Origin: a virus
DNA: 29,565 nt
Reading direction: 5' to 3' (one strand)
Virus genome (UHGV): UHGV-0175179
Below, piece after piece: positions 2,853 through 21,480 of the stretch (position 1 is the stretch's first letter; the number at the start of each line of letters is the position of its first letter). Position numbers and translations under genes: made by a program. The notes under the pieces were generated by a model that was given only the letters and a program-made list of their open reading frames with translations, had not been told where the DNA came from and ran no database searches.

Positions 2853-3836
2853 ATGATTCGATCTCTCGTTAAATGGCCCGGTGGTAAAGGCCGCGTTATG
2901 CCTGATTTGCTGCCGATTCTGCCGAAAGCCGATTGCCTGGTGGAACCGTTTGTCGGCGGTGCTTCTGTTTTCCTCAATACTGAATATCGCCGTTATATCC
3001 TGGGTGATATAAACCCAGATTTAATTAACCTGTATCGCCAGATAGCCCGCTGGCCTGATGTGGTGATCGACGCTGCTCGCCCGCTGTTTAAAGTGTACGG
3101 TGATAAAGACGGCTATAAGTGGATCCGCGACGATTTCAACGCTCGCGCCCATGACCTTCTTTCATCGCGCAATGTGTTTGAGGACGGACCGGACGCGGGC
3201 AAGATTCTTCGTGCAGCACAGTTTCTTTACCTGAACCGTCACGGATATAACGGCGTAGTGCGCTACAACCAACAGGGCGGATATAACGTTCCCTTTGGTA
3301 GACACAAAACCCCGCCTTACTTCCCGGAAGAACAGATCCGTTTATTCTCTGAAAAAGCTAACGACACGAAAGCTATTTTCGTGTGCTGCGATTTCCAGAG
3401 CACGTTAAAAATCACGATTGGTAGTGACGCGGTTATCTACTGCGATCCGCCATACCTGCCAACAAGCGAAACCGCTAATTTCACCCAATACCACACCGCC
3501 CCGTTTGGGATTAAAGAGCATCGCCAGTTAGCTGCCGCCCTGCTGGATATTAACCGCCTTACTGGTTCGCCGGTGATCCTGTCCAACAGCGACACCCCTG
3601 CTACCCGCGAGATTTATCACACTTTCAACTTCCAGGAAATCAGCGTTAACCGTTCTGTCAGCGCGAACGCCATTACCAGAGGGGTCGCCAGTGAAGTGAT
3701 TGGCGTCCTGAAAGTGTGCAGCGGCTGCGGTCGTGCCGATGGTGGCCGTTGTCCTGACTGCGGCCCGGTAATGGGTGACGCGACCTACAACGAAATGCTG
3801 GCATCGGCTGCGGCCAATGGCGTGGAGGCTTTTTAA
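2853..3836 (+). CDS. dam: DNA adenine methyltransferase, Dam family, with a C-terminal Cys4 zinc-ribbon extension
   Basis: KWPGGK and LVEPFVGGASVFLNTEYRRYILGDINPDLINLY are near-identical in pattern to E. coli Dam (KWAGGK, LVEPFVGAGSVFLNTDF..YILADINSDLISLY). DPPY catalytic motif present (IYCDPPYLPT). The C-terminal ~45 aa add CSGCGRADGGRCPDCG. GGAGA RBS 8 nt upstream. Confidence 0.9.
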   Translation: MIRSLVKWPGGKGRVMPDLLPILPKADCLVEPFVGGASVFLNTEYRRYILGDINPDLINLYRQIARWPDVVIDAARPLFKVYGDKDGYKWIRDDFNARAHDLLSSRNVFEDGPDAGKILRAAQFLYLNRHGYNGVVRYNQQGGYNVPFGRHKTPPYFPEEQIRLFSEKANDTKAIFVCCDFQSTLKITIGSDAVIYCDPPYLPTSETANFTQYHTAPFGIKEHRQLAAALLDINRLTGSPVILSNSDTPATREIYHTFNFQEISVNRSVSANAITRGVASEVIGVLKVCSGCGRADGGRCPDCGPVMGDATYNEMLASAAANGVEAF

Positions 3837-4036
3837 TGGCAACCCGTATCGATGCAACTCAATCCGAATTTACCCGCGGTGCGCTGGCTGCGCTTAACGA
3901 AGCTAAAACCATTGCGCTTGCCCATGCGACGTTAGCGGGCGTTCTGGCTGGGCCTGACGTGGCTAATACATTGCTGATTTCTTTCAATACGTTATTAGAC
4001 CCGCTAATCGAAAAGCATTCACAACGGGAGGGTTAA
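3836..4036 (+). CDS. Hypothetical small protein (66 aa), translationally coupled between the two methyltransferase genes
   Basis: ATG overlaps the dam stop (TAATG). Ala/Leu-rich, no motif recognised. Confidence 0.4.
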   Translation: MATRIDATQSEFTRGALAALNEAKTIALAHATLAGVLAGPDVANTLLISFNTLLDPLIEKHSQREG

Positions 4037-4038
4037 TC

Positions 4039-5049
4039 GTGGGTGCTTTGGCTTACTACAACGAAATCGATCCATATGCAGCACAGTGGCTGCGCAACCT
4101 CATTGATGCCGGGCATATTGCGCCAGGCATTGTTGATACCCGTTCAATTGAGGATGTAACCCCCAATGACCTTAAAGGCTTTACTCAATGTCACTTCTTT
4201 GCCGGGATCGGTGTGTGGTCATATGCCCTGCGTCTTGTGGGCTGGCCGGACGACAAACCGATCTGGACTGGATCCTGCCCATGCCAGCCTTTCAGCCCGG
4301 CAGGCAAAGCAACTGGGTTTGATGACGAGCGGCACTTATGGCCCGCCTTTCATTGGCTCATTGCTCAGTGCCGCCCTGTCGTTGTCGCTGGCGAGCAATC
4401 TGGAAGCGCTAACGCGAACGTCTGGCTCGACCTTGTACAAACTGACATGGAAAGCCTGGGCTATGCCTTCGGGGCGGTCGCGTTTCCGTCTGCGAGCGTC
4501 GGTGCGCCACACATCCGGGACAGAGCTTACTGGGTGGCCGACACCAACGGCGAGCGCATGGAAACACCCTGGAAATCAGGGGAGGCAGGGAGGCTTGAAT
4601 TTGCAAACGGCCACAGCATTAGCTGGGTGGCCGACACCAACAACACAGAGCAACAACCAAATCTCAGGAGTTGGAGCGGCTGCAGATCACCCGAAGCGCG
4701 GGACAACTTTGGGCGGGGCTGCTCAGCTGTCGGGGTGGCCGACACCAGCTTCAAGGGACGGCAAGGGGGGGTATCAGGGCGGGAGGATGCGCAACGGGAA
4801 GCTGTCGACGGACACGCTGGATGTGACGGCGCAAATTGCGGGACCGGTCCGGTTAACGGTTTCTGGCGATCTGCTGACTGGCTGTATTGCCGGGATGGAA
4901 ACTGGAGGCCAGTTAAACCCGGACTTAAGCCGCTGGTTGATGGGGTTACCGGACGAGTGGGAAAAATCCGCGCCTACGGAAACGCTATCAACGTTGAAGC
5001 TGCAACAGCGTTCATAAAGGCTTATATGATGGGGGCGTCAAATGTCTGA
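4039..5049 (+). CDS. DNA cytosine-5 methyltransferase, phage orphan Dcm-like (GTG start); reading frame integrity uncertain
   Basis: Motif I-like FAGIGVW, motif IV PCQPFSPAG, motif VIII-like APHIRDRAYWVA and motif X-like RAYGNAINVEAATAFIKAY in this frame. GGGAGG 7 nt upstream of the GTG. The stop overlaps the gpA start. Confidence 0.8.
   Translation: MGALAYYNEIDPYAAQWLRNLIDAGHIAPGIVDTRSIEDVTPNDLKGFTQCHFFAGIGVWSYALRLVGWPDDKPIWTGSCPCQPFSPAGKATGFDDERHLWPAFHWLIAQCRPVVVAGEQSGSANANVWLDLVQTDMESLGYAFGAVAFPSASVGAPHIRDRAYWVADTNGERMETPWKSGEAGRLEFANGHSISWVADTNNTEQQPNLRSWSGCRSPEARDNFGRGCSAVGVADTSFKGRQGGVSGREDAQREAVDGHAGCDGANCGTGPVNGFWRSADWLYCRDGNWRPVKPGLKPLVDGVTGRVGKIRAYGNAINVEAATAFIKAYMMGASNV
4531..4749 (+). 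repeat. Three direct copies of a ~15-bp motif GGGTGGCCGACACCA inside the Dcm-like gene
   Basis: Copies at 4531-4548, 4623-4641 and 4732-4749, read directly from the sequence. They encode WVADTN / WVADTN / GVADTS in the gene frame and GWPTP three times in the overlapping frame. Confidence 0.8.
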
Positions 5050-8253: not shown

Positions 8254-8580
8254 TTATGCTGTCTGGCCGTTGAGCAGGTCCAGCGCGAATTGACGTTCTT
8301 CCGGCTTGAGCCGGTCAATCAGGAATTTAACCAGCTTGTTACCGGTCAGCCCGCTGGGGCTGAGAGTATGTGAAAACTGGGCGTTAAAAACAAAGGTATG
8401 GCCGCATTCAACTTCCGTGCAGGCGCAGTACAAATCAGCCAGTTTTTTGTCTTTCCAGTCAGATTTACGAATGATGGCCGGTGAGCCGCATTCAGGACAT
8501 TTAATTTTAAAAACTCGCATGTTCACCATCCCGCACGCCATTGCTAACAATGGGGATGATTTTAACTTAATTGCGCTCAT
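8254..8580 (-). CDS. ogr: Ogr/Delta-family zinc-finger late transcription activator (possible shorter form starting at 8520)
   Basis: CPECG...LYCACTEVECGHTFVF matches the Ogr/Delta C4 zinc-finger pattern (P2 Ogr CPLC...YHQCQNVNCSATFIT). The ATG at 8580 overlaps the portal stop (ATGA); an internal ATG at 8520 would give an Ogr-sized 89-aa product. Confidence 0.75.
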   Translation of the reverse strand: MSAIKLKSSPLLAMACGMVNMRVFKIKCPECGSPAIIRKSDWKDKKLADLYCACTEVECGHTFVFNAQFSHTLSPSGLTGNKLVKFLIDRLKPEERQFALDLLNGQTA

Positions 8581-9638: not shown

Positions 9639-11446
9639 GCTGCTTTCCCAAAGTACCAGCCCGATGGGCGGTCATATTCGTGATCGATAGGTTCGTTAAT
9701 TACGGCGTGCGAAATGGCGAAGAAAACATCTGCATGGCCGGTCGCATCAGAGCGTTCGGCAACAAACGTCAGCGCGTTGCCGCTGTTGGTTGTCGTGCGC
9801 CGGATAGCCATAAAGCTGGCCGGAATTTCGACACGCTCCTTGTTCGTTTCGTCTACGGCGTCTTTTGCCCATTCGATGCGCTTACGCTCGACAACGTCGA
9901 TCATCTTCATTACCAGACGGTTTTTGCTTTCGACGCTGTAAAGAATCGGTGTGGCTTCGCGTGGAGCAAACTTGCTGACCAGGTCATAAACGCCTTTACC
10001 AATGCCGGTTGTATCGATCCCGATGTAAGTGATGTTAAAGCGGCGCATAAGCTGCTTTATCTGGTCAGCCTGCCAGCTAAAGTTAAAGCCCTGCCATTGC
10101 CAGACGGCCAGCACGCGGAAGCGCTCGCCGTCCTCTATGGGGGGCGCGATTAACACAAAGGTGGAGTTGTCGCCGGATCGCGATGGGTCAAAGCCTGCCC
10201 ATACTTCGCGATTGCCGAAGGGTCGTGCAGCGGTTAGATCAAAGTCGCCCCATGTGGCTCGGTCCACTTCGCAGCCGACAAGCGCGGAGAACTTGAAAAC
10301 CGCGTCCTTACTGTCAACAAACTGGCACATGTAGAGCATGGCAAACGCGGTCGGGCTGTATTTGTTGCGCAGCCGTTCAATATCGACAAGCGCCCCGAGG
10401 CCGCCTTCGATAGCGTCTTCCATCGTGATGATGTAGCGCCAGATCTGGTCCGGGCAAAGAATGCCATGGCGCATTTCGCTTTCTTTCGGAAACGCCACAC
10501 CTTTGCGTTTCGGGTCGTCCCCGCGCCAGGCTTCGCCAGTCCAGACCGGGTAAGCCTGGTGCGTTTTCGCGCTGGGCGTCGAAAAGTAGGTCGTGCGGTA
10601 TTTGTTATGCGTTGCCATTGCGCTGGCAACTTCATGCAGGCGCGTGAATTTCGGGATCCAGAAAACCTCATCACCATACAGGTGGCCGTTAAAGCCCTGC
10701 GCGGTGCTGGCGTTCGTGGACAAAAAGCGCAGTATTGCGCCGTTGCTGAGGCGGATATTTTTACCCGTCAGCGTCACGCCGAAATGGTTCTGAGCGATCT
10801 GGACGATGTATTCACGGAAGATTTCAGACTGGGAGCGGCTTGCAGAGAAAAAGACCTGGTTATCACCGGTAATGACAGCATCTTCGAATGCCTCCCAGGC
10901 GAAATAATAGGTCATGCCTACCTGTCGGCTTTTCAGAATGAAACGCCAGTCTTCGCCTTTATGTTCGCGGCAGTGCAGCTGGTACTCGAAGAGATGTTCC
11001 CGCGCCCAGGTGTCGAGCATTTCCGCTGTAATACCGGAAACGTCGTTTTTCTTATACCGGCGCTTTCTTTCCCCAGGTTCCCCGCCTGCGCTGCTGAGGC
11101 AGTACCCTTCATCATCATAAGCCGCTTTCTGGGCCTGAATTTCTGCCAGCTTTTCGGCGTGCTTGTTGCGCTGCGCCATGAGTTTTACATGGTGAGCAAT
11201 CAGATCGCGCAGTTCTTCCAGTTCCAGCGCTGTTTTTTTCTCGCGGCGGGAGAGCTGGTCGATACGGCGGGCGATGACATTTTCCACCGATTCAACAGGC
11301 AGCAGTGATGCCCACTTCCCGACGTCAGCCCAGTGGTAAATTGTACGCGGTGGAATATTCAGTTCCTGCGCAATATCTTTCGGCGTCCAGCTTTTTATAT
11401 AAAGCGTGCGGGCCGCTTCTTTTAATTCATCGGAATATTTAGCCAT
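9635..11446 (-). CDS. P: Terminase large (ATPase) subunit, P2 gpP-like
   Basis: 603 aa. Walker A-like segment (LKSRQVGMTYYFAWEA region) and nuclease-domain character. Divergently arranged against the scaffold gene, as P2 P/O. Confidence 0.85.
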   Translation of the reverse strand: MAKYSDELKEAARTLYIKSWTPKDIAQELNIPPRTIYHWADVGKWASLLPVESVENVIARRIDQLSRREKKTALELEELRDLIAHHVKLMAQRNKHAEKLAEIQAQKAAYDDEGYCLSSAGGEPGERKRRYKKNDVSGITAEMLDTWAREHLFEYQLHCREHKGEDWRFILKSRQVGMTYYFAWEAFEDAVITGDNQVFFSASRSQSEIFREYIVQIAQNHFGVTLTGKNIRLSNGAILRFLSTNASTAQGFNGHLYGDEVFWIPKFTRLHEVASAMATHNKYRTTYFSTPSAKTHQAYPVWTGEAWRGDDPKRKGVAFPKESEMRHGILCPDQIWRYIITMEDAIEGGLGALVDIERLRNKYSPTAFAMLYMCQFVDSKDAVFKFSALVGCEVDRATWGDFDLTAARPFGNREVWAGFDPSRSGDNSTFVLIAPPIEDGERFRVLAVWQWQGFNFSWQADQIKQLMRRFNITYIGIDTTGIGKGVYDLVSKFAPREATPILYSVESKNRLVMKMIDVVERKRIEWAKDAVDETNKERVEIPASFMAIRRTTTNSGNALTFVAERSDATGHADVFFAISHAVINEPIDHEYDRPSGWYFGKAA

Positions 11447-11623
11447 GCGGCTATTATGGCGGGATTATTTTGCATAATTGATAATTAAATATCGGTAAAA
11501 AGTGGCTATGTATTTATAACCGAATGCATAAGAAATAAAGCGGTCGCGCTGTTTTAACCAATTCGCAATACTGACCACCACGAACGAATCATTGTTATTT
11601 AATTTCATTATTAAAGGTCAGTT
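11447..11623. promoter_or_regulatory. Divergent late promoter region between terminase (P) and scaffold (O) genes
   Basis: 177-bp AT-rich intergenic region between divergent late operons, as PP/PO in P2. Contains repeated TGCATAA motifs and a TTATG-N14-CATAA dyad. Confidence 0.4.
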
Positions 11624-12673
11624 ATGCCGCAACCTAATTTACGAACGGACTGGATTTGTATTGCCACGTCCGGTAAGGCAGTGGACGGTCGCACTATTGA
11701 GCCGCAATGGTTGATCGATGCGGCAGAAACATACACCCGCAAAACCTACACCGCCATGATTTGGCCGCATCACCCACAATACGACATTGGAGAACGTGCC
11801 TTTACTTACAATCTGGGGGAAGTGGACGCGCTCAAAGTAGAGACTGAAGGTGATGTCACTAAACTTTATGCCCAGCTTATTCCGAATGAATTTTTATTAG
11901 ATGCCAATCGTATGGGGCAAAAGCTTTTCACATCTGCGGAATTTGTTTCTGATTTTGGGGGGAGTGGTCGTGAATATCTTTTCGGGCTGGCTGTGACAGA
12001 TATTCCCGCGAGTCTTGGAACAGAAAAAATTAAATTCGTATTGGCTGGAGAAGAAAAGGACGCCGAACGCGGAAACCTTGAAACATTCAGCCTGGGTGAT
12101 TTGCATAAAGATAAGCCGGGGTTTTGGACGCGCTTATTTACTGCCGGTAAAAATTTTACACCAACACCAGAGCCAAACACTGATAAGCCCTCTGAGGGCG
12201 ACGGAGAAAAAATGGAAGAGTTAAAAGCCCTCATCCAGCAATTACTGGATTTAGTAAAAAGCGGTAAAGACGCTGCAACGGGTGACGCTGACACGGTCGA
12301 TACACCGGAACAGGCCGCCGACGAAGTGGCCGTCATTGCTGACGAAATCGCAGACGCTGCCGCCGAAGTGGCAGATCTGGCGGAGGAAGTTGCAGAGAAC
12401 CCGGAAGACGAAGTCAAAGCGGAAGAATTCAGCGTCGCCAAAGCCAACCTGGCAAAAGCGATGAAAAAATTCAGCGCAGCCCCGGCACGTCGTCAGCGTA
12501 CCCGCAGCCGCCGCCGTGAGCTTTCCGCAGGGCGTCAGGCCGGTAACCCGCTGAACGGCCTGTCCGAACAACTGACCACCGTCATGACCAAGTTGTCAGC
12601 GATGGAAAGTAACGGAACGCGTCGTCCTGGTAATGCGCCAGCGGGCGACAAAAAACCGCGTGAATTAGTTTAA
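11624..12673 (+). CDS. O: Capsid scaffolding protein, P2 gpO-like
   Basis: First gene of the rightward head operon, directly before the major capsid gene. Acidic Ala/Glu-rich helical C-terminal half typical of scaffolds. Confidence 0.7.
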   Translation: MPQPNLRTDWICIATSGKAVDGRTIEPQWLIDAAETYTRKTYTAMIWPHHPQYDIGERAFTYNLGEVDALKVETEGDVTKLYAQLIPNEFLLDANRMGQKLFTSAEFVSDFGGSGREYLFGLAVTDIPASLGTEKIKFVLAGEEKDAERGNLETFSLGDLHKDKPGFWTRLFTAGKNFTPTPEPNTDKPSEGDGEKMEELKALIQQLLDLVKSGKDAATGDADTVDTPEQAADEVAVIADEIADAAAEVADLAEEVAENPEDEVKAEEFSVAKANLAKAMKKFSAAPARRQRTRSRRRELSAGRQAGNPLNGLSEQLTTVMTKLSAMESNGTRRPGNAPAGDKKPRELV

Positions 12674-16178: not shown

Positions 16179-17321
16179 ATGACCTGGCCGAATGTCAACG
16201 TCAGTCAGAAAAACCGCTTCAACGGCACAACGAACGACGTCGAGCGCGTCATCCTCTTTGTGGGTTACGGCGACACTAACATCGGGAAAACCCAGTCGCT
16301 GAATACCGACAGCGATCTGGATAAAGCCCTGGGCGACAAAGACAGCCTGTTAAAAAGCATTGTGGCCGCTGCGGCCAATAACGCCGGTCAGAACTGGTTT
16401 GCTTATGTGCACGTACTGGGGCAACCGGACACGGAAGCCGAGGGCTATAAACCAGACGAGGACTGGATGAACGCGGTCAAACAGGCCCAGAGCGTGGCAT
16501 CCGTGGAAGGGATCCTTCTGGCTTTTGATACCACCGACGCGGCCACCATTAACCGCGCAACGGAAATGCGCGTCACCTTACAGGCCAGTTTTGGGCGTTT
16601 TATCTGGTTTGCCCTTGCTGTGGGCGGGCCGGAAAAGGACGAAGCGTGGAGCGACTATGTGACGCGCCTGGCAACACTCCAGGACGGTATTGCATCGCCT
16701 GGGGTACAACTGGTCCCGCGTCTGTGGGGTAACGAACCCGGCGTCCTGGTCGGTCGCTTGTGTAACCGTTCGGTGACGGTGGCAGACAGCCCCGCCCGCG
16801 TTGCAACCGGCGCAGTCACCGCGCTGGGTCGCGACGGCCTGCCGGTCGACGGGACGGGGGTCGAAATTGATCTGGCCGTGTTGCAGTCTTTGCAGGCAAA
16901 CCGCTACAGCGTGCCGATGTGGTATCACGATTTTGACGGCATCTACTGGGCTGACGGTCGCACCCTGGACGTTGAAGGCGGTGATTATCAGGTGATTGAA
17001 AACGTGCGCGTGGTTGATAAAGCCTCCCGCCGCGTCCGTCTGCGTGCAATCCCCAAAATTGCCGATCGTTCACTGAACAGCACACCGGGCAGCATCGCCG
17101 CGCATGAAACCTATTTCGGCAAGCCGCTGCGCGAAATGGCGATTGCAACCCAGATCAATGGCGTCGAATTTCCGGGCGAAGTGAAACCACCAAAGGACGG
17201 CGATATCACCATCACCTGGACCAGTAACGAAGCGGTACAGATTTACCTTGTGGTTCGACCGTATGAGAGCGCGAAAGAAATCGGCGTCAGCATCGAACTG
17301 GACACCTCACTGGAGAGCTAA
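16179..17321 (+). CDS. Putative tail sheath protein (not P2 FI-like in sequence)
   Basis: 380-aa protein immediately upstream of a ~150-aa tube-like protein and the chaperone/tape-measure pair. Assignment by synteny and size. Confidence 0.5.
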   Translation: MTWPNVNVSQKNRFNGTTNDVERVILFVGYGDTNIGKTQSLNTDSDLDKALGDKDSLLKSIVAAAANNAGQNWFAYVHVLGQPDTEAEGYKPDEDWMNAVKQAQSVASVEGILLAFDTTDAATINRATEMRVTLQASFGRFIWFALAVGGPEKDEAWSDYVTRLATLQDGIASPGVQLVPRLWGNEPGVLVGRLCNRSVTVADSPARVATGAVTALGRDGLPVDGTGVEIDLAVLQSLQANRYSVPMWYHDFDGIYWADGRTLDVEGGDYQVIENVRVVDKASRRVRLRAIPKIADRSLNSTPGSIAAHETYFGKPLREMAIATQINGVEFPGEVKPPKDGDITITWTSNEAVQIYLVVRPYESAKEIGVSIELDTSLES

Positions 17322-17324
17322 TCA

Positions 17325-17780
17325 ATGAATGAACGTATTAGCGGTGGATCATTCGATGTGAACTACGACGGCATCATGATTCACGTCGAAAACGCCACCG
17401 TCACCATTACGGACAACAGCGCGGTAGCACAAACCCGCGGCGTCCCGAACGGCCACACGAAAGGGTCAGTTTCGGCGGATGTGGAAGTCGAAGTCGATTC
17501 CCAGAACTTTAAAAAGTTTACCGCCGTGGCCCGTTCGGCAGGTTCCTGGCGAGCCATTCCGGCAAAGGACTTTTTGTTCTACGCCAACGCCGGGGACGAC
17601 GAAGAAAAAATCGAGGTGTTTGGCTGCGTTCCGACGCTGTCTGACATCGTCAACATCAACCCCAACGAGGCCAGCAAAACCACGAAGAAAATTAAATTCA
17701 TGGTGACAAGCCCGGACTTTGTCGCGATTGACGGCGTGCCGTACCTGTCAGCCCGTGACACTCGCGATCTTAAAGGCTGA
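17325..17780 (+). CDS. Putative tail tube protein
   Basis: 151 aa, beta-rich, directly after the sheath candidate. Confidence 0.5.
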   Translation: MNERISGGSFDVNYDGIMIHVENATVTITDNSAVAQTRGVPNGHTKGSVSADVEVEVDSQNFKKFTAVARSAGSWRAIPAKDFLFYANAGDDEEKIEVFGCVPTLSDIVNINPNEASKTTKKIKFMVTSPDFVAIDGVPYLSARDTRDLKG

Positions 17781-17784
17781 CACG

Positions 17785-18096
17785 ATGATGAACGGAGAAA
17801 CGTCACTGCTTGAAAAGCTGTTGCTTATCGGGGCCGTGATCGGTCTGGGGCAACTGATGGTCAGCAATGAGCGAATCACAACCCGTCTGCTGGTCGGGCG
17901 GATGATTCTGGGATCTGCGGTCGCACCGCTGGCCGCAATCCCGCTACTGAAATTCCCCGATATGCCGGAACTGGTCGTCATTGGGCTGGCCTGCGCCCTG
18001 GGCATTCTGGGAAGCGCGTTTATTGAGGCCGGGTTAAAGCGCTGCCTGGATATGTATATCAAGCGATGGGGGAGCAAGCGCAATGAAACTGAGTGA
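17785..18096 (+). CDS. Holin (small membrane protein with three predicted TM segments)
   Basis: ~103 aa with three hydrophobic stretches (LLLIGAVIGLGQLMV, LLVGRMILGSAVAPLAAIPLL, LVVIGLACALGILGSAFIEAGL) and a charged C-terminus. Immediately upstream of the endolysin. Confidence 0.6.
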   Translation: MMNGETSLLEKLLLIGAVIGLGQLMVSNERITTRLLVGRMILGSAVAPLAAIPLLKFPDMPELVVIGLACALGILGSAFIEAGLKRCLDMYIKRWGSKRNETE

Positions 18097-18421
18097 AAAA
18101 CAGCAACTTTTCACGGTGATGATCGCCAACCTGATTCATTTTGCCGAAGAAAAGGGTTATCGCCTGACGTTTGGCGAAGCGTACCGCACGCCGGAACAGG
18201 CCGCGCTTAACGCAAAAAATGGGAGCGGCATTACTAACAGCCTGCATACCCAGCGCCTGGCGGTGGATTTTAACCTGTTTGTTAACGGCGAATACCAGAC
18301 CGACAGTGCCGCATATCGCCCCCTGGGCGAATACTGGGAATCTATCGGCGGATCGTGGGGTGGCCGTTTCAGTAAGCCGGACGGGAACCATTTCAGTCTT
18401 GAGCATAACGGGGTTCGCTGA
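18083..18421 (+). CDS. Endolysin, peptidase M15-type (L-alanyl-D-glutamate / VanY-like zinc peptidase fold)
   Basis: SLHTQRLAVD fits the SxHxxGxAxD zinc-binding motif and DGNHFSLEH supplies the distal His. 112 aa. Flanked by holin and spanin genes. Confidence 0.7.
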   Translation: MKLSEKQQLFTVMIANLIHFAEEKGYRLTFGEAYRTPEQAALNAKNGSGITNSLHTQRLAVDFNLFVNGEYQTDSAAYRPLGEYWESIGGSWGGRFSKPDGNHFSLEHNGVR

Positions 18422-18804
18422 TGCGTAATTTGCTGGGTCTTTTGCTGATTCTGGTCGCTGCGATGTCAGCGGGCTGGCAGGCGCATGACTGGCACGACGC
18501 AAAGCTGAAACTCGCTGCCAGTGAAGCGGCAGAACAAACGCGCCAGATTGTCGTTGATATGACGCAACAGTCTGGCGCCGCGCTGGAAGCAAAACTCGCG
18601 GAGCTGAGGGCCAATGAAATTCACACGGAACGGGTTATCCGCACGGAAACCATTAAGCCGGTTTTTAGCAACGTTTGCGCTTCTGATGATTACGTCCGGT
18701 TGTTCAACGAAAGTGCAGATCAAGCCGAACGAAAATTATCAGGAAAACCAGCTGACACTTTGCCCGGTCACGCTGCCACGTCTGGCCGGACCGACCGGAA
18801 ATGA
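18421..18804 (+). CDS. i-spanin (Rz / LysB-like)
   Basis: N-terminal TM segment (LLGLLLILVAAMSAGW) followed by a charged helical region (AKLKLAASEAAEQTRQ...LEAKLAELRANE). Start overlaps the endolysin stop. Confidence 0.65.
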   Translation: MRNLLGLLLILVAAMSAGWQAHDWHDAKLKLAASEAAEQTRQIVVDMTQQSGAALEAKLAELRANEIHTERVIRTETIKPVFSNVCASDDYVRLFNESADQAERKLSGKPADTLPGHAATSGRTDRK

Positions 18805-18910
18805 CTTTGACGCGGCGCTGAAAGCCTACCGGCTGATGTATACCGACTGCGCCGCCCGACATAACGCCCTGGTGGGCAACATTCGACAACGTAAGGAATT
18901 TGCACAATGA
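18614..18910 (+). CDS. o-spanin (Rz1 / LysC-like outer-membrane lipoprotein), overlapping the i-spanin gene in another frame
   Basis: Signal peptide with lipobox LLMITSGC. Starts inside the i-spanin gene and extends beyond it. Stop overlaps the next gene's ATG. Confidence 0.65.
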   Translation: MKFTRNGLSARKPLSRFLATFALLMITSGCSTKVQIKPNENYQENQLTLCPVTLPRLAGPTGNDFDAALKAYRLMYTDCAARHNALVGNIRQRKEFAQ

Positions 18911-19176
18911 GTAAACCGAAAAAAATCGCCATGACCGTGGCGGGCGTAAATCTGAGCTTTGAGCCGAATAAAACCGCGTTTAACAACCTGCTTAACGAAA
19001 TGACCATGACCAATAAGGTTGCCCCTATGGTGACGTATCTGGGCCGCATTGTTGATGCCGAGTGTAAAGAGTCGCTCAACAAGCTGATGGAAGATTATCC
19101 GGGTTGCGAAATGCAGATCGTCGAGAAAGTTAACGAGATTTACTCCCCCAAACTTGAGATCGAAGTAAAAAACTGA
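18907..19176 (+). CDS. Tail assembly chaperone (P2 gpE / lambda gpG analogue), short form
   Basis: 89-aa ORF immediately upstream of the tape measure gene. Ends with slippery heptamer A_AAA_AAC in the zero-frame register. Confidence 0.6.
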   Translation: MSKPKKIAMTVAGVNLSFEPNKTAFNNLLNEMTMTNKVAPMVTYLGRIVDAECKESLNKLMEDYPGCEMQIVEKVNEIYSPKLEIEVKN

Positions 19177-19364
19177 CGGCGCGGGTAGCGGCCATTCGCA
19201 CAAATGCGCTTGAGCAATACCTTGCCCTGCGCCGCTACTACCTCCCGCACGAAGCCGACGACGAAGAAAGCATCGCCCGCGCCCTGTGGCTGGACGAATA
19301 TTTCGCCCAGACCCGCGCCAGCAAGACGGCGGAAGGGATAGCCATCGCATTTAACGGAAACTGA
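18907..19364 (+). CDS. Tail assembly chaperone frameshift-extended form (gpE+E' / gpGT analogue) via -1 programmed frameshift
   Basis: The -1 frame is open from 19173 to a TGA at 19362-19364 with no internal ATG. It fills exactly the otherwise empty 190 bp before the tape measure start at 19366. Confidence 0.55.
19167..19173 (+). other. Programmed -1 ribosomal frameshift slippery site A_AAA_AAC
   Basis: Heptamer AAAAAAC in the X_XXY_YYZ register relative to the chaperone frame, 1 nt before the zero-frame stop. Confidence 0.55.
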
Positions 19365-19365
19365 T

Positions 19366-21480
19366 ATGAGCCACCTGGATTTTACCCTGAGCCTGATCGA
19401 TAAGCTGACGCGGCCATTAAAGACGGCCCAGTCTTCGTTGTCCGGCTTTGCTGAAAAATCGCAGGCGTCTTTTACAAAAATCGGGATCGGTGCGGCGGCT
19501 GTCTGGGGGGTGGCACAGTCCATCGCGGGCGTGGTGGGTCCGGCGTATGAGATGAACGCCGCACTTGCAGAAGTGGGTTCCAAAGGCGTGGCAGAGGACG
19601 CGCTGAAGCGTCTGTCCGGTGAAGCCATGCGATTCAGTATGCGCTACGGCAAAGGGGCCGTTGATGTGGTCCGGTCAAGCTATGCGATGAAAGGCGCAAT
19701 GGCGGGCCTGTCCGATATGGACCTGCCCCGCGTCACCATCGCGGCCAATACCCTGGCCGCAGGCGTCAAGGCCAGCGGCGAAGAGGCAGGCGAATACATC
19801 GGCGCGATGGCGTCACGCTTCAACGCGGAGTTGTCCAGTCTGGGCCATGTACGTTTTGCCGAAGAGCTGGCAGGGAAAACGGCGTACATGGTGCAAAACT
19901 TCGGCGTGAAAATGCAGACCATGCAGGAGCTTATCGAGGGGACGAAAAGCGCCGGTGCTGACTTTGGCGTCAGCCTGGATGAACAGTTCGCCGTCCTGGG
20001 TACGCTTTCGCGCACGCTGGGTACTGAGGCCAGCGGGATCTACGAGCAGTTTTTACGCAGCGCCCCGGCTGCCGCTGAAAAGCTGGGTATGAGCTTTGTC
20101 GATGCCACCGGAAAAATGCTGCCGATGGGTGACATTCTGCAAAAACTTCAGAGCAAATACGGGCAGAGCATTGAAGGAAACGTCAAGGCACAACAGGCGC
20201 TGGACGCCGCGTTCGGTGGTGGTGCTGACGTTATCAAAAAGCTGTACGGTCAGCAGGATAAATTAAACCGCAGCATCACCGAACTGGGCAGAAATGACGG
20301 GATGAAACGCGCCCAGGAAATGGCCGAACGAATGGCCGAGCCGTGGGAACGTATCAAAGCGACATTCTTTGCCATTCGCGCGGCGATTGGTAACACGCTG
20401 ATCCCTATCCTGTCGCCGCTGATGAACCGTATTGCCGACGTGGGGACAAAATTTGCCCGCTGGCTGGATATGTTCCCGAATATTGCCCGCTGGCTGGGTT
20501 ACATCACCCTGGGCGTGTTGTCATTCGGGCTGGCCGGGGCGGCGGTCAATATCGTGATGGGGGTCTTTGGCTTCACCATGACGGGGCTGGCCGCAATCGC
20601 TAAGGTACTGGGCGGCGCATGGAAACTCCTGTTATGGACGCTCAACCTGTTGCGTCCGTCCCTGCTGACGACGCGCATCGGTCTGGCTGCATTGTGGATC
20701 CAGTCAAAATTACTGGCGCTGTGGACGGGCGTCTGCCGCATCGCGCTTGCTGCATGGAATATCGCGTTAAAGGCCGGGGCCATTGCCATGCGGGTTTACG
20801 GCGCGGCGACCATGTTTGCCGGGGCTGCAATGCAATTCCTGATGAGTCCGATCACCCTGATTATTGCCGCGCTGGCACTTCTGGCCGTGGGGGTCTGGTA
20901 CGTCGTCACCCATTGGGAAGAACTGGCGGCAGCGGTCATGAATACGGCGGCTTTTGACTGGGTGATGTCGGTCGCGGAACAGGTGGGCCAGGTGTTTGCG
21001 CAGGTCTGGCAGTCCATCACTGACGGCTGGGCCGTGGTGGTTGATTTCTTTGCCGGTCTTTCCCCGCTTGCCACCTTTGAAGGGTTCGCACAAACCATCG
21101 GCGGGGTATTCAGCAAACTTTTTGACGTCCTCAAAAATACCTTTGCGTCTACCTATAACTGGATTGTGGAGAAGTTAAACAAGATCCCCGGCGTCAACAT
21201 CGACCTGAAAACCGTTTCGCCACCGGCAGCGGCTGCCGTTCCGGCAAACGCGGTCATTCCTGACAGTGCTGCAGGTTCGTCGAAGCTGAACAGCCCGTCA
21301 GTGCTGACGGGGAACCGAATTAATGCAGACATCCCACGCGGCGGCCTGATGAGTCAGGTTAAAACCGACAGCAAAACCGCCGTTGATAACCGTAAATCGT
21401 GGGGCGATACCTACATCAACGCCCCCAATGGAATCACCCCGGCCCAGTTGGCTGAATGGCAGGAGCTTAACGCAGGATGA
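19366..21480 (+). CDS. Tail tape measure protein
   Basis: 704 aa, Ala/Gly-rich with hydrophobic segments in the C-terminal half. Follows the frameshifted chaperone pair. Confidence 0.85.
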   Translation: MSHLDFTLSLIDKLTRPLKTAQSSLSGFAEKSQASFTKIGIGAAAVWGVAQSIAGVVGPAYEMNAALAEVGSKGVAEDALKRLSGEAMRFSMRYGKGAVDVVRSSYAMKGAMAGLSDMDLPRVTIAANTLAAGVKASGEEAGEYIGAMASRFNAELSSLGHVRFAEELAGKTAYMVQNFGVKMQTMQELIEGTKSAGADFGVSLDEQFAVLGTLSRTLGTEASGIYEQFLRSAPAAAEKLGMSFVDATGKMLPMGDILQKLQSKYGQSIEGNVKAQQALDAAFGGGADVIKKLYGQQDKLNRSITELGRNDGMKRAQEMAERMAEPWERIKATFFAIRAAIGNTLIPILSPLMNRIADVGTKFARWLDMFPNIARWLGYITLGVLSFGLAGAAVNIVMGVFGFTMTGLAAIAKVLGGAWKLLLWTLNLLRPSLLTTRIGLAALWIQSKLLALWTGVCRIALAAWNIALKAGAIAMRVYGAATMFAGAAMQFLMSPITLIIAALALLAVGVWYVVTHWEELAAAVMNTAAFDWVMSVAEQVGQVFAQVWQSITDGWAVVVDFFAGLSPLATFEGFAQTIGGVFSKLFDVLKNTFASTYNWIVEKLNKIPGVNIDLKTVSPPAAAAVPANAVIPDSAAGSSKLNSPSVLTGNRINADIPRGGLMSQVKTDSKTAVDNRKSWGDTYINAPNGITPAQLAEWQELNAG

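Follow-up and report, generated by a model that had tools for sequence, protein, structure and literature searches.

A predicted holin, endolysin and overlapped spanin cassette in the tube/chaperone slot of virus genome UHGV-0175179

Virus genome UHGV-0175179 was analysed as a single window of 29,565 nucleotides, which contains a full phage gene set: integrase, repressor-like regulator, replication protein, portal, terminase, capsid, tail, fibres and baseplate. Reading the ORFs from the window sequence, we identified a lysis cassette of four tightly packed genes on the + strand at 17785-18910, flanked on both sides by genes for tail proteins. The features of the locus are as follows.

17325-17780, + strand, tail tube gene (PF10772 Phage_HP1_Orf24, E = 3.4e-52; PHROG 1182, E = 1.9e-71)
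17785-18096, + strand, holin gene, 103 aa (PF04550, E = 9.2e-21; PHROG 175 'holin', E = 2.6e-34)
18083-18421, + strand, endolysin gene, 112 aa (PF13539 Peptidase_M15_4, E = 5e-10)
18421-18804, + strand, i-spanin gene, 127 aa (PHROG 1152 'Rz-like spanin', E = 2.1e-38)
18614-18910, + strand, o-spanin gene, 98 aa precursor (PHROG 2425, function unknown, E = 7.4e-29)
18680-18703, + strand, codons for LLMITSGC, o-spanin residues 23-30 (direct sequence reading)
18907-19176, + strand, tail assembly chaperone gene (PF10963 Phage_TAC_10, E = 7.9e-30)

By phmmer, the tail tube protein matches the tube proteins of HP1 (3.2e-50) and K139 (8e-49), and the tail assembly chaperone matches HP1 orf26 (4.1e-16). 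The tube stop and the holin start are 4 nt apart. The holin and endolysin genes overlap by 14 nt, the endolysin and i-spanin genes by 1 nt and the o-spanin and chaperone genes by 4 nt, the ATG of the chaperone overlapping the o-spanin stop (ATGA). The arrangement is well outside chance expectation: all 40 related IMG/VR loci share this gene order. These gene calls, family memberships and overlaps are direct observations, and they bear out the first-pass annotation, which had assigned this interval to a holin, an M15-type endolysin, an i-spanin and an o-spanin, with the tail tube gene on one side and the tail chaperone gene on the other. Family and PHROG matches, topology and conservation agree on all four identities, and the PF10772 and PF10963 matches identify the flanking genes. 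The cassette is real and is an ordinary phage lysis set.

The closest named relatives are the Salmonella phages SI7, SW3 and SW5 (Peduoviridae, Irrigatiovirus), with 96.8% nucleotide identity over 16179-21480, and prophages in 18 complete E. coli genomes, with 95.9% identity over 17325-19176; the gene order is identical in both groups. A literature search on SI7, SW3 and SW5 found no relevant paper. Yersinia phage vB_YenM_324 (OM095401) and Escherichia phage ESSI2_ev015, which belong to other genera (about 50% tube identity), carry the same four protein families in the same slot. The vB_YenM_324 proteins, labelled holin, metallopeptidase, I-spanin and O-spanin in its record, match those of the window at 2.9e-17, 2.7e-61, 3.3e-28 and 9.7e-24, respectively (phmmer).

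The position of the cassette had been put down to a module shuffle by comparison with P2. The description of P2 was accurate: its gene order is L-X-Y-K-lysA-lysB-lysC-R-S, with the lysis genes outside the FI-FII-E-T tail module, whereas the cassette of the window lies inside the tail module. The order tube, holin, endolysin, i-spanin, o-spanin, chaperone, tape-measure is that of HP1-type Peduoviridae, and lysis genes occupy the tube/chaperone slot in HP1, K139, VPUSM 8, PV94, F108, phiO18P and Pseudomonas phi3 as well as in ESSI2_ev015 and vB_YenM_324. Phages with this slot infect Haemophilus, Pasteurella, Vibrio, Aeromonas, Pseudomonas, Escherichia/Cronobacter, Yersinia and Salmonella (tube identity 42-58%), and the only exception among the sampled phages with an HP1_Orf24 tube is Pseudoalteromonas ACA2. 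This tube type is present in 75 phage records. The synteny comparison thus upheld the difference from P2 but not the idea that the placement is unusual, since HP1 and K139 use the same slot.

A recent shuffle that brought the cassette into the tail operon, whether in this phage itself or in its immediate ancestors, is very unlikely. It can draw on the location of Y-K-lysA-lysB-lysC between X and R in P2, and on a holin of the P2 Y type rather than the HP1 type, which implies that the contents of the slot were exchanged at some point. Against it, all sampled HP1_Orf24-tube phages but ACA2, and all 40 IMG/VR relatives, use the same slot, so the position is old and lineage-wide. On this synteny the tube/chaperone placement is the usual HP1/K139-type layout, with no event assignable to this phage and no new rearrangement.

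Several details of the compared cassettes were recorded along with their position. In Haemophilus phage HP1 (hol-lys-orf25) and Vibrio phage K139 (orf27-orf30) the lysis genes precede the chaperone and tape-measure genes and the spanin pair is overlapped; in K139-type phages the holin is preceded by a gene for a DksA-like zinc-finger protein. In phiO18P a methyltransferase is inserted in the slot. Phage Midge was considered as a relative in layout and set aside, as it is a true P2-type phage with its lysis genes upstream of the sheath gene. The apparent fusion of o-spanin and chaperone in K139 orf30 probably stems from an error in the K139 record, as its close relative VPUSM 8 has a separate o-spanin of 100 aa.

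The holin scores 74.5 bits against PF04550 (Pfam cutoff 25) and matches P2 gpY at 2.3e-16 by phmmer; gpY, which the P2 record describes as essential for lysis, matches the same Pfam family at 2.6e-42. Hydropathy peaks at residues 12-26, 41-55 and 63-77 match the three peaks of P2 Y, and the C-terminal 19 residues, with 6 K/R and 3 D/E, form a basic tail. The protein is a predicted three-TMD, class I-like holin of the P2 gpY family, the TMD count being taken from hydropathy. Its reading frame opens with ATGATG (Met-Met). We considered a dual-start antiholin of the lambda S107 type and rejected it: Met-Met occurs in the closest relatives, more distant ones begin with Met-Pro, Met-Gln or the like and lack a second Met, and the two possible holin products do not differ in charge. 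No antiholin was found. P2 has the timing protein LysA, which is absent here.

The endolysin scores 40.3 bits against PF13539 (Pfam cutoff 25). Matches to L-Ala-D-Glu endopeptidases among PDB sequences required a family profile (alignment A6), which found 8q2g (7.1e-11), Ply500 2vo9 (3.9e-10), ChiX 5opz (4.2e-7) and T5 2mxz (1.3e-6); the single sequence gave only E = 0.2, to T5 EndoT5. Together with the Pfam match, these hits to solved M15C enzymes support the M15-type identity that had been proposed. In A6 the residues H55, D62, D100 and H103 do not vary, and they line up with the SRH...AVD and DG/DYxHF motifs found in the solved enzymes. We take them to be the His-Asp-His zinc ligands and the catalytic Asp, with the roles assigned after T5 EndoT5. 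The motifs S-x-H-x(6)-D and D-x-x-H are shared with 8Q2G, Listeria phage Ply500 2VO9, Serratia ChiX 5OPZ and EndoT5 2MXZ, and at 112 aa the endolysin is shorter than the catalytic units of all the solved M15C enzymes (129-179 aa). A single-sequence AF2 model (pLDDT 73.6) had ChiX as its top Foldseek match, a weak one (E = 0.045, TM 0.41), followed by VanY. A hydropathy search of the endolysin found no hydrophobic segment, and thus neither a signal nor a SAR segment. The product is a predicted soluble cytoplasmic M15C (LAS-type) zinc peptidase, and its predicted specificity is most likely that of an L-alanyl-D-glutamate endopeptidase. The P2 endolysin K is unrelated to it.

The cassettes in the same slot of HP1 and K139 have unrelated components, a two-peak PF16080 holin and a GH24 lysozyme with a hydrophobic N-terminal segment (residues 4-23 in HP1 and 6-26 in K139), and both phages apparently lyse by a pinholin and a SAR-endolysin. 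That the cassette of the window works in the same way is highly improbable: its holin, with three TMD-like peaks, is a member of the P2 gpY family rather than of PF16080, and the N-terminal region of its endolysin reaches a maximal 15-residue hydropathy of 1.17, compared with 2.2-2.3 in the HP1 and K139 lysozymes.

The i-spanin has one hydrophobic segment by hydropathy, at residues 1-21 (peak 2.48, TMD about 4-20), and none elsewhere. Membrane topology had been named as the point on which the holin and spanin calls would stand or fall, and TMD-like peaks are present in both the holin and the i-spanin. After the N-terminal TMD the periplasmic domain is long and helical, and the C-terminal tail is disordered; the single-sequence AF2 model, of modest confidence (pLDDT 71, pTM 0.30), places helices at 2-86 and 89-107. 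Cys86 is invariant (alignment A4). Compared with a profile of P2 LysB, HP1 orf25 and K139 orf29, the protein shows no detectable similarity (hhalign probability 0.7%). The PHROG 1152 match and the lone TMD support the i-spanin identity, and the protein is a predicted type II inner-membrane protein with a single N-terminal TMD, as defined for overlapped two-component spanins (Summer 2007; Kongari et al. 2018, PMC6139136).

As first described, the start of the o-spanin falls within the i-spanin gene in another frame, and the gene ends past it. Relative to the i-spanin its frame is +1; the two genes share 191 nt, and the last 106 nt of the o-spanin gene lie downstream of the i-spanin end. Overlaps in relatives are 179-197 nt, and P2 lysB/lysC have the same arrangement, with an o-spanin that begins within the i-spanin gene and continues beyond it. 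The lipobox LLMITSGC is confirmed, and the check for a lipoprotein signal gave a type-II signal that fits a PS51257-like pattern: an n-region with 5 K/R, the h-region FLATFALLMITSG, and then Cys30, the predicted acylation site (codon 18701-18703). The lipobox reads I-T-S-G/C30 and the predicted mature lipoprotein is 69 aa. The -3 residue is Thr, which is outside the strict [LVI] consensus; relatives have T, M or L. The +2 residue is Ser31 (Thr in loci L043-45) and not Asp, which points to sorting to the outer membrane. C50 and C79 are invariant, and together with the invariant i-spanin C86 they fit the disulfide rule for spanins (Kongari et al. 2018, PMC6139136). The two proteins are a predicted two-component spanin of overlapped architecture, and they are predicted to form a complex.

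Could the o-spanin be a chance out-of-frame ORF, with the i-spanin on its own, or some other factor, disrupting the outer membrane? The ORF is unannotated in the SI7 RefSeq record and in the PGAP-annotated E. coli prophages, PHROG 2425 is labelled function unknown, and the protein falls under the curated LysC/Rz1 cutoff of 27 bits (PF23793, 14.3 bits, E = 0.038; NF038368 P2_Rz1, 15.4 bits, E = 0.016). P2 LysC, the HP1 o-spanin (1.7e-7) and K139 orf30 (1.2e-20) all pass the LysC threshold. Its similarity to the LysC family is weak: hhalign gives a probability of 74% (E = 2.8e-5) over 53 columns that include the signal peptide and lipobox, the LysC profile consisting of only 3 sequences. Conservation nevertheless speaks against a chance ORF. 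All 34 unique relatives keep the o-frame open, against 2-11 stops in the remaining two frames, and in all 40 related IMG/VR loci the frame has no stop and keeps both the signal peptide and the lipobox Cys. The Cys is conserved in relatives down to 42% i-spanin identity, where the o-spanin is still 52% identical, and the o-spanin alignment has 34 invariant columns. Upstream of the overlap the most variable codon position is that of the i-frame (0.222), inside the overlap variability is flat, and past the i-spanin stop third-position variability follows the o-frame (0.14 versus 0.074 and 0.051). In addition, the homologue in vB_YenM_324 is annotated as an O-spanin, and gene callers routinely miss overlapped o-spanins (Kongari et al. 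2018, PMC6139136). We give a chance ORF very little credence and retain the o-spanin assignment.

The SI7 RefSeq record already annotates the holin, the endolysin and an 'Rz-like spanin', and in the SI7 and E. coli prophage records the o-spanin is unannotated although the ORF is intact in both; the apparent 102-nt gap before the chaperone gene in these records is filled by the 3' part of the o-spanin gene. The o-spanin of HP1 (L003 8917-9183) is likewise unannotated in its record. In vB_YenM_324 and ESSI2_ev015 the annotated o-spanin starts are too far downstream, so that the signal peptide is lost; the open frame reaches upstream to NMSG/C and SLSA/C lipoboxes, and the real overlaps therefore exceed the annotated ones.

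A scan of the + strand from 16.6 to 23.0 kb for sigma-70 consensus promoters (as distinct from activator-dependent P2-type late promoters) and terminators found no such site, and an Rfam scan of the whole window gave no match. As the four genes overlap or abut each other and the tail genes, and no sigma-70 promoter or terminator specific to them was detected, the lysis genes are probably co-transcribed with the tail proteins on the same late transcript. The tube gene contains a P2-type TGT-N12-ACA activator site (17638-17655), some 145 nt upstream of the holin; such sites number 7 in the window, with 5.6 expected. We rejected it as a separate lysis promoter: it lies in conserved coding sequence and is missing in loci L033, L035, L038 and L043-44. 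Stops break up a long antisense ORF at 18059-18592 on the - strand in 11 of the 33 unique relatives, and it was dismissed as spurious. A further antisense ORF spans 18826-19350 on the - strand. The overlap of the o-spanin stop with the chaperone start might, through tight translational coupling, link the amounts of lysis and tail proteins that are made.

We are highly confident that the cassette belongs to an HP1-type, P2-related (Peduoviridae, Irrigatiovirus-like) temperate phage and serves canonical three-step Gram-negative lysis. By analogy with the characterised lambda, P2 and T5 paradigms, on which the assigned activities, the bond cleaved, the co-transcription and the order of events are modelled, the three-TMD gpY-type holin would build up in the inner membrane and form large holes at a critical concentration. 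The small cytoplasmic M15C zinc peptidase would then cross these holes and cleave the stem peptides of the peptidoglycan, most likely at the L-Ala-D-Glu bond. The i-spanin in the inner membrane and the o-spanin, as an outer-membrane lipoprotein, would already be joined across the periplasm; released once the murein is gone, they would disrupt or fuse the outer membrane. A domesticated set for protein secretion or tailocin release, like Serratia ChiWXYZ, is scarcely credible despite the kinship of the endolysin family to ChiX in the profile and Foldseek comparisons, given the full phage gene set of the window and its near identity to SI7, a phage isolated from irrigation water.

The content of the slot varies, with a gpY-type holin and a soluble M15 peptidase here versus a two-TMD holin and an exported lysozyme in HP1 and K139. 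It is possible, though we think it rather unlikely, that the tube/chaperone slot is a fixed exchange point at which whole lysis strategies are swapped as units; if true, this would merely extend ordinary phage mosaicism. The cassette is a textbook holin-endolysin-spanin set in the position normal for its lineage, and what remains is the gap in o-spanin annotation together with that mosaicism. The finding carries little biological weight, and its practical value lies in annotation. The o-spanin gene is absent from the SI7 RefSeq, PGAP-annotated E. coli prophage and HP1 records, and a new or broadened model would recover the o-spanin of PHROG 2425, which is listed without a function and scores below the LysC/Rz1 cutoffs. 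The M15 peptidase is an unusually small predicted endolysin and could be of interest for enzybiotic work.

The region at 17785-18910 on the + strand of the window contains four ORFs packed without spacers into the tail operon, with the extents, identities and flanking genes that the first-pass annotation had assigned to them. The features of this region are as follows.

16179-17321, tail sheath gene (PHROG 907, E=1.9e-158; DUF2586)
17325-17780, + strand, tail tube gene, upstream neighbour (PF10772 HP1_Orf24, E=3.4e-52)
17785-18096, + strand, holin, 103 aa
18083-18421, + strand, endolysin, 112 aa
18421-18804, + strand, i-spanin, 127 aa
18614-18910, + strand, o-spanin, 98 aa
18907-19176, + strand, tail assembly chaperone gene, downstream neighbour (PF10963, E=7.9e-30)
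19167-19173, + strand, A_AAA_AAC slippery heptamer
19173-19364, + strand, -1 frame extension of the chaperone, which would add 63 codons
19366-21480, tape-measure gene, after the chaperone gene

The tail tube stop lies 4 nt before the holin start, and this gap is followed in order by overlaps of 14, 1 and 4 nt, the o-spanin ending in an ATGA shared with the chaperone start. The proposed holin scores 74.5 bits against PF04550 (cutoff 25), matches PHROG 175, labelled "holin", and has hydrophobic peaks at residues 12-26, 41-55 and 63-77 followed by a basic tail. The P2 holin, gpY, is homologous to it (phmmer 2.3e-16), belongs to the same Pfam family and also has three peaks, and the holin claim stands. 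In the window phage and those nearest to it the gene opens with ATG ATG (Met-Met, 17785-17790); in more distant ones it opens with Met-Pro, Met-Gln or similar, without a second Met. A lambda-type dual-start motif was ruled out, there being no charged residue between both Met codons, and no antiholin was identified for the cassette.

The endolysin, proposed to be of M15 type, exceeds the Pfam threshold for Peptidase_M15_4. The single sequence matched the T5 endolysin at E=0.2 only; a profile built from ten family members and searched against the sequences of solved structures matched the L-alanyl-D-glutamate endopeptidases 8Q2G (7.1e-11), Ply500 (3.9e-10), ChiX (4.2e-7) and T5 EndoT5 (1.3e-6). 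The motifs S-x-H55...D62 and D100-x-x-H103 align to the solved enzymes and are invariant in the family. ChiX was also the best fold match, a weak one (E=0.045), of a single-sequence AlphaFold model (pLDDT 73.6). Hydropathy revealed no hydrophobic N-terminal segment in the endolysin, which should therefore depend on the holin for access to the cell wall.

The 127-aa i-spanin matches PHROG 1152, "Rz-like spanin" (2.1e-38), has a single, N-terminal hydrophobic segment, and is modelled at modest confidence as two long helices and a disordered C-terminal tail. As had been read from the sequence, the o-spanin begins within the i-spanin gene in another frame and runs past it: its ORF, in the +1 frame, shares its first 191 nt with the i-spanin gene and extends 106 nt past the stop. 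At its N-terminus a basic n-region leads into a hydrophobic core and I-T-S-G|C30, with Ser at +2, and the lipobox string LLMITSGC, correctly read, is residues 23-30 (Cys30 codon, 18701-18703). Because its similarity to the P2 LysC/Rz1 family is sub-threshold (Pfam 0.038, NCBIfam 0.016, hhalign 74%), and a search for similarity between the i-spanin and LysB-type i-spanins found none, we file the pair as a putative overlapped two-component spanin rather than with the LysB/LysC family.

With the i-spanin as query, an IMG/VR scan recovered 40 loci that are 42-98% identical to it. Tube, holin, endolysin, i-spanin, o-spanin and chaperone follow one another in this order in 40/40, and every locus has an uninterrupted o-frame that codes for a signal peptide and the lipobox Cys, with T, M or L at -3. 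Among the 34 unique sequences, 0 stops occur in the o-frame and 2-11 in the other two frames. Before the overlap begins, the most variable codon position is that of the i-frame (0.222 vs 0.107, 0.076), and past the i-spanin stop it is that of the o-frame (0.140 vs 0.074, 0.051); variability within the overlap is flat. Cys86 is invariant in the i-spanin, as are Cys50 and Cys79 in the o-spanin, in keeping with the disulfide-linked complexes reported in spanins (PMC6139136). The open frame, the retained lipobox Cys, the codon variability tracking the o-frame and the invariant cysteines lead us to conclude that the o-spanin gene is real.

The first-pass annotation called the placement a module shuffle relative to P2, which it described correctly; the P2 order is L, X, Y, K, lysA, lysB, lysC, R, S. 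The tail region of the window phage is HP1-type, not P2-type (sheath, tube, chaperone, tape measure). HP1 carries hol, lys and orf25 (the i-spanin) with an overlapped o-spanin between its tube and chaperone genes. Lysis genes occupy the same slot in K139, VPUSM 8, PV94, F108, Pseudomonas phi3, ESSI2_ev015, phiO18P (with a methyltransferase inserted between hol and lys) and Yersinia vB_YenM_324, whose record labels a holin, metallopeptidase, I-spanin and O-spanin, all four homologous to those of the window (2.9e-17 to 2.7e-61). Only Pseudoalteromonas ACA2, among the phages compared, has no lysis genes there. Because the slot is filled in this way across HP1-type phages, synteny indicates an old, lineage-wide difference from P2; the position does differ from that in P2, but the shuffle is not particular to the window phage. 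The cassette was also already known: the Irrigatiovirus Salmonella phage SI7 shares 96.8% identity with the window over 16179-21480, prophages of 18 complete E. coli genomes 95.9% over 17325-19176, and their records annotate the holin and M15 endolysin, that of SI7 also an Rz-like spanin. The earlier reading is thus partly supported, its genes being right and its placement not novel.

The contents of the slot vary. The window, vB_YenM_324 and ESSI2 clades have a gpY-type holin with three TMDs and a soluble M15 peptidase, whereas HP1 and K139 have two-peak PF16080 holins; their lysozymes are of GH24 type and, having a hydrophobic N-terminus, look like exported or SAR-type endolysins. The most divergent relatives (L043-45) encode a different M15 peptidase of 129 aa. 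This is ordinary phage mosaicism.

The reading with most support, and a very probable one, is that the cassette works by the canonical three-step lysis pathway. The holin would perforate the inner membrane, the peptidase would leave the cytoplasm through the holes and break down murein stem peptides, and a periplasm-spanning spanin complex would then disrupt the outer membrane. The tight junctions, and a scan that found neither sigma-70-like promoters nor terminators on the + strand near the cassette, suggest co-expression with the tail genes from a late transcript; we infer this only, since the scan is blind to activator-dependent late promoters. A TGT-N12-ACA site in the tube gene was not taken as a sign of a separate lysis promoter, being no more than expected by chance and not universally conserved. 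An exact copy of this motif is absent from 11446-11624, the intergenic region at the head genes. A 108-aa regulator adjoining the portal gene (8254-8580, - strand; PHROG 603) is a candidate late-gene activator; it matches weakly, far under the cutoff (E=8e-4), the PRK09678 model for zinc-finger regulators of the Ogr type.

At its 3' end the chaperone gene reads ...GTA AAA AAC TGA, placing the slippery heptamer just upstream of the stop. Its -1 frame is open over 19158-19364, ending 2 nt short of the tape-measure gene, and the heptamer and extension (LTxRVxAI..N.LEQYL.LRRYYLPH...) are kept in 40/40 related loci, HP1, vB_YenM_324 and ESSI2_ev015. The arrangement resembles the programmed frameshift that is usual in tail chaperone genes, as in P2 E/E+E' and lambda G/GT; in the SI7 record and under PGAP, parts of the extension appear instead as a stand-alone "hypothetical protein" or "DUF6890 family protein".

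Two long antisense ORFs lie opposite the cassette and chaperone gene at 18059-18592 (- strand, 177 aa) and 18826-19350 (- strand, 174 aa); the former is judged spurious, with stops in 11/33 unique relatives. An Rfam search of the whole window gave no match. The window is otherwise a complete HP1-type prophage, with integrase, regulators, replication protein, portal, terminase, capsid, tail, fibres, baseplate and two early-region DNA methyltransferase genes on the + strand (2853-3836 and 4166-5017; PHROG 56, 8.6e-100, and PHROG 31772/1008).

Several records need correction. The tail sheath gene is named "topoisomerase" or "topoisomerase IA" for vB_YenM_324 (L049 1465-2604) and in SI7 GenBank (MK972712), apparently a propagated misannotation. 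Intact o-spanin ORFs with a lipobox are unannotated in the RefSeq records of SI7 (L001 5436-5732) and HP1 (L003 8917-9183, HP1 record 20916-21182; LysC 1.7e-7) and missing from the PGAP annotation of the E. coli 2011C-4251 prophage (L002 3790-4086). The 62-aa "O-spanin" of vB_YenM_324 (L049 3995-4183) and 62-aa "FIG01049434 hypothetical protein" of ESSI2_ev015 (L046 4006-4194) are annotated from starts too far downstream and so have no signal peptide; both frames are open upstream, with ...LLMNMSG|C and a possible GTG start at 3893 in the former and ...CLMSLSA|C and an ATG at 3895 in the latter. K139 orf30 (L004 10799-11377) is one 192-aa ORF in which an o-spanin (LysC 1.2e-20) and the tail chaperone (TAC_10, 3.1e-18) are joined. 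VPUSM 8, closely related to K139, encodes its spanin in a CDS of its own (100 aa), so an error or an indel in the K139 record probably accounts for the fusion. The remaining value of the cassette lies in this corrected o-spanin annotation.
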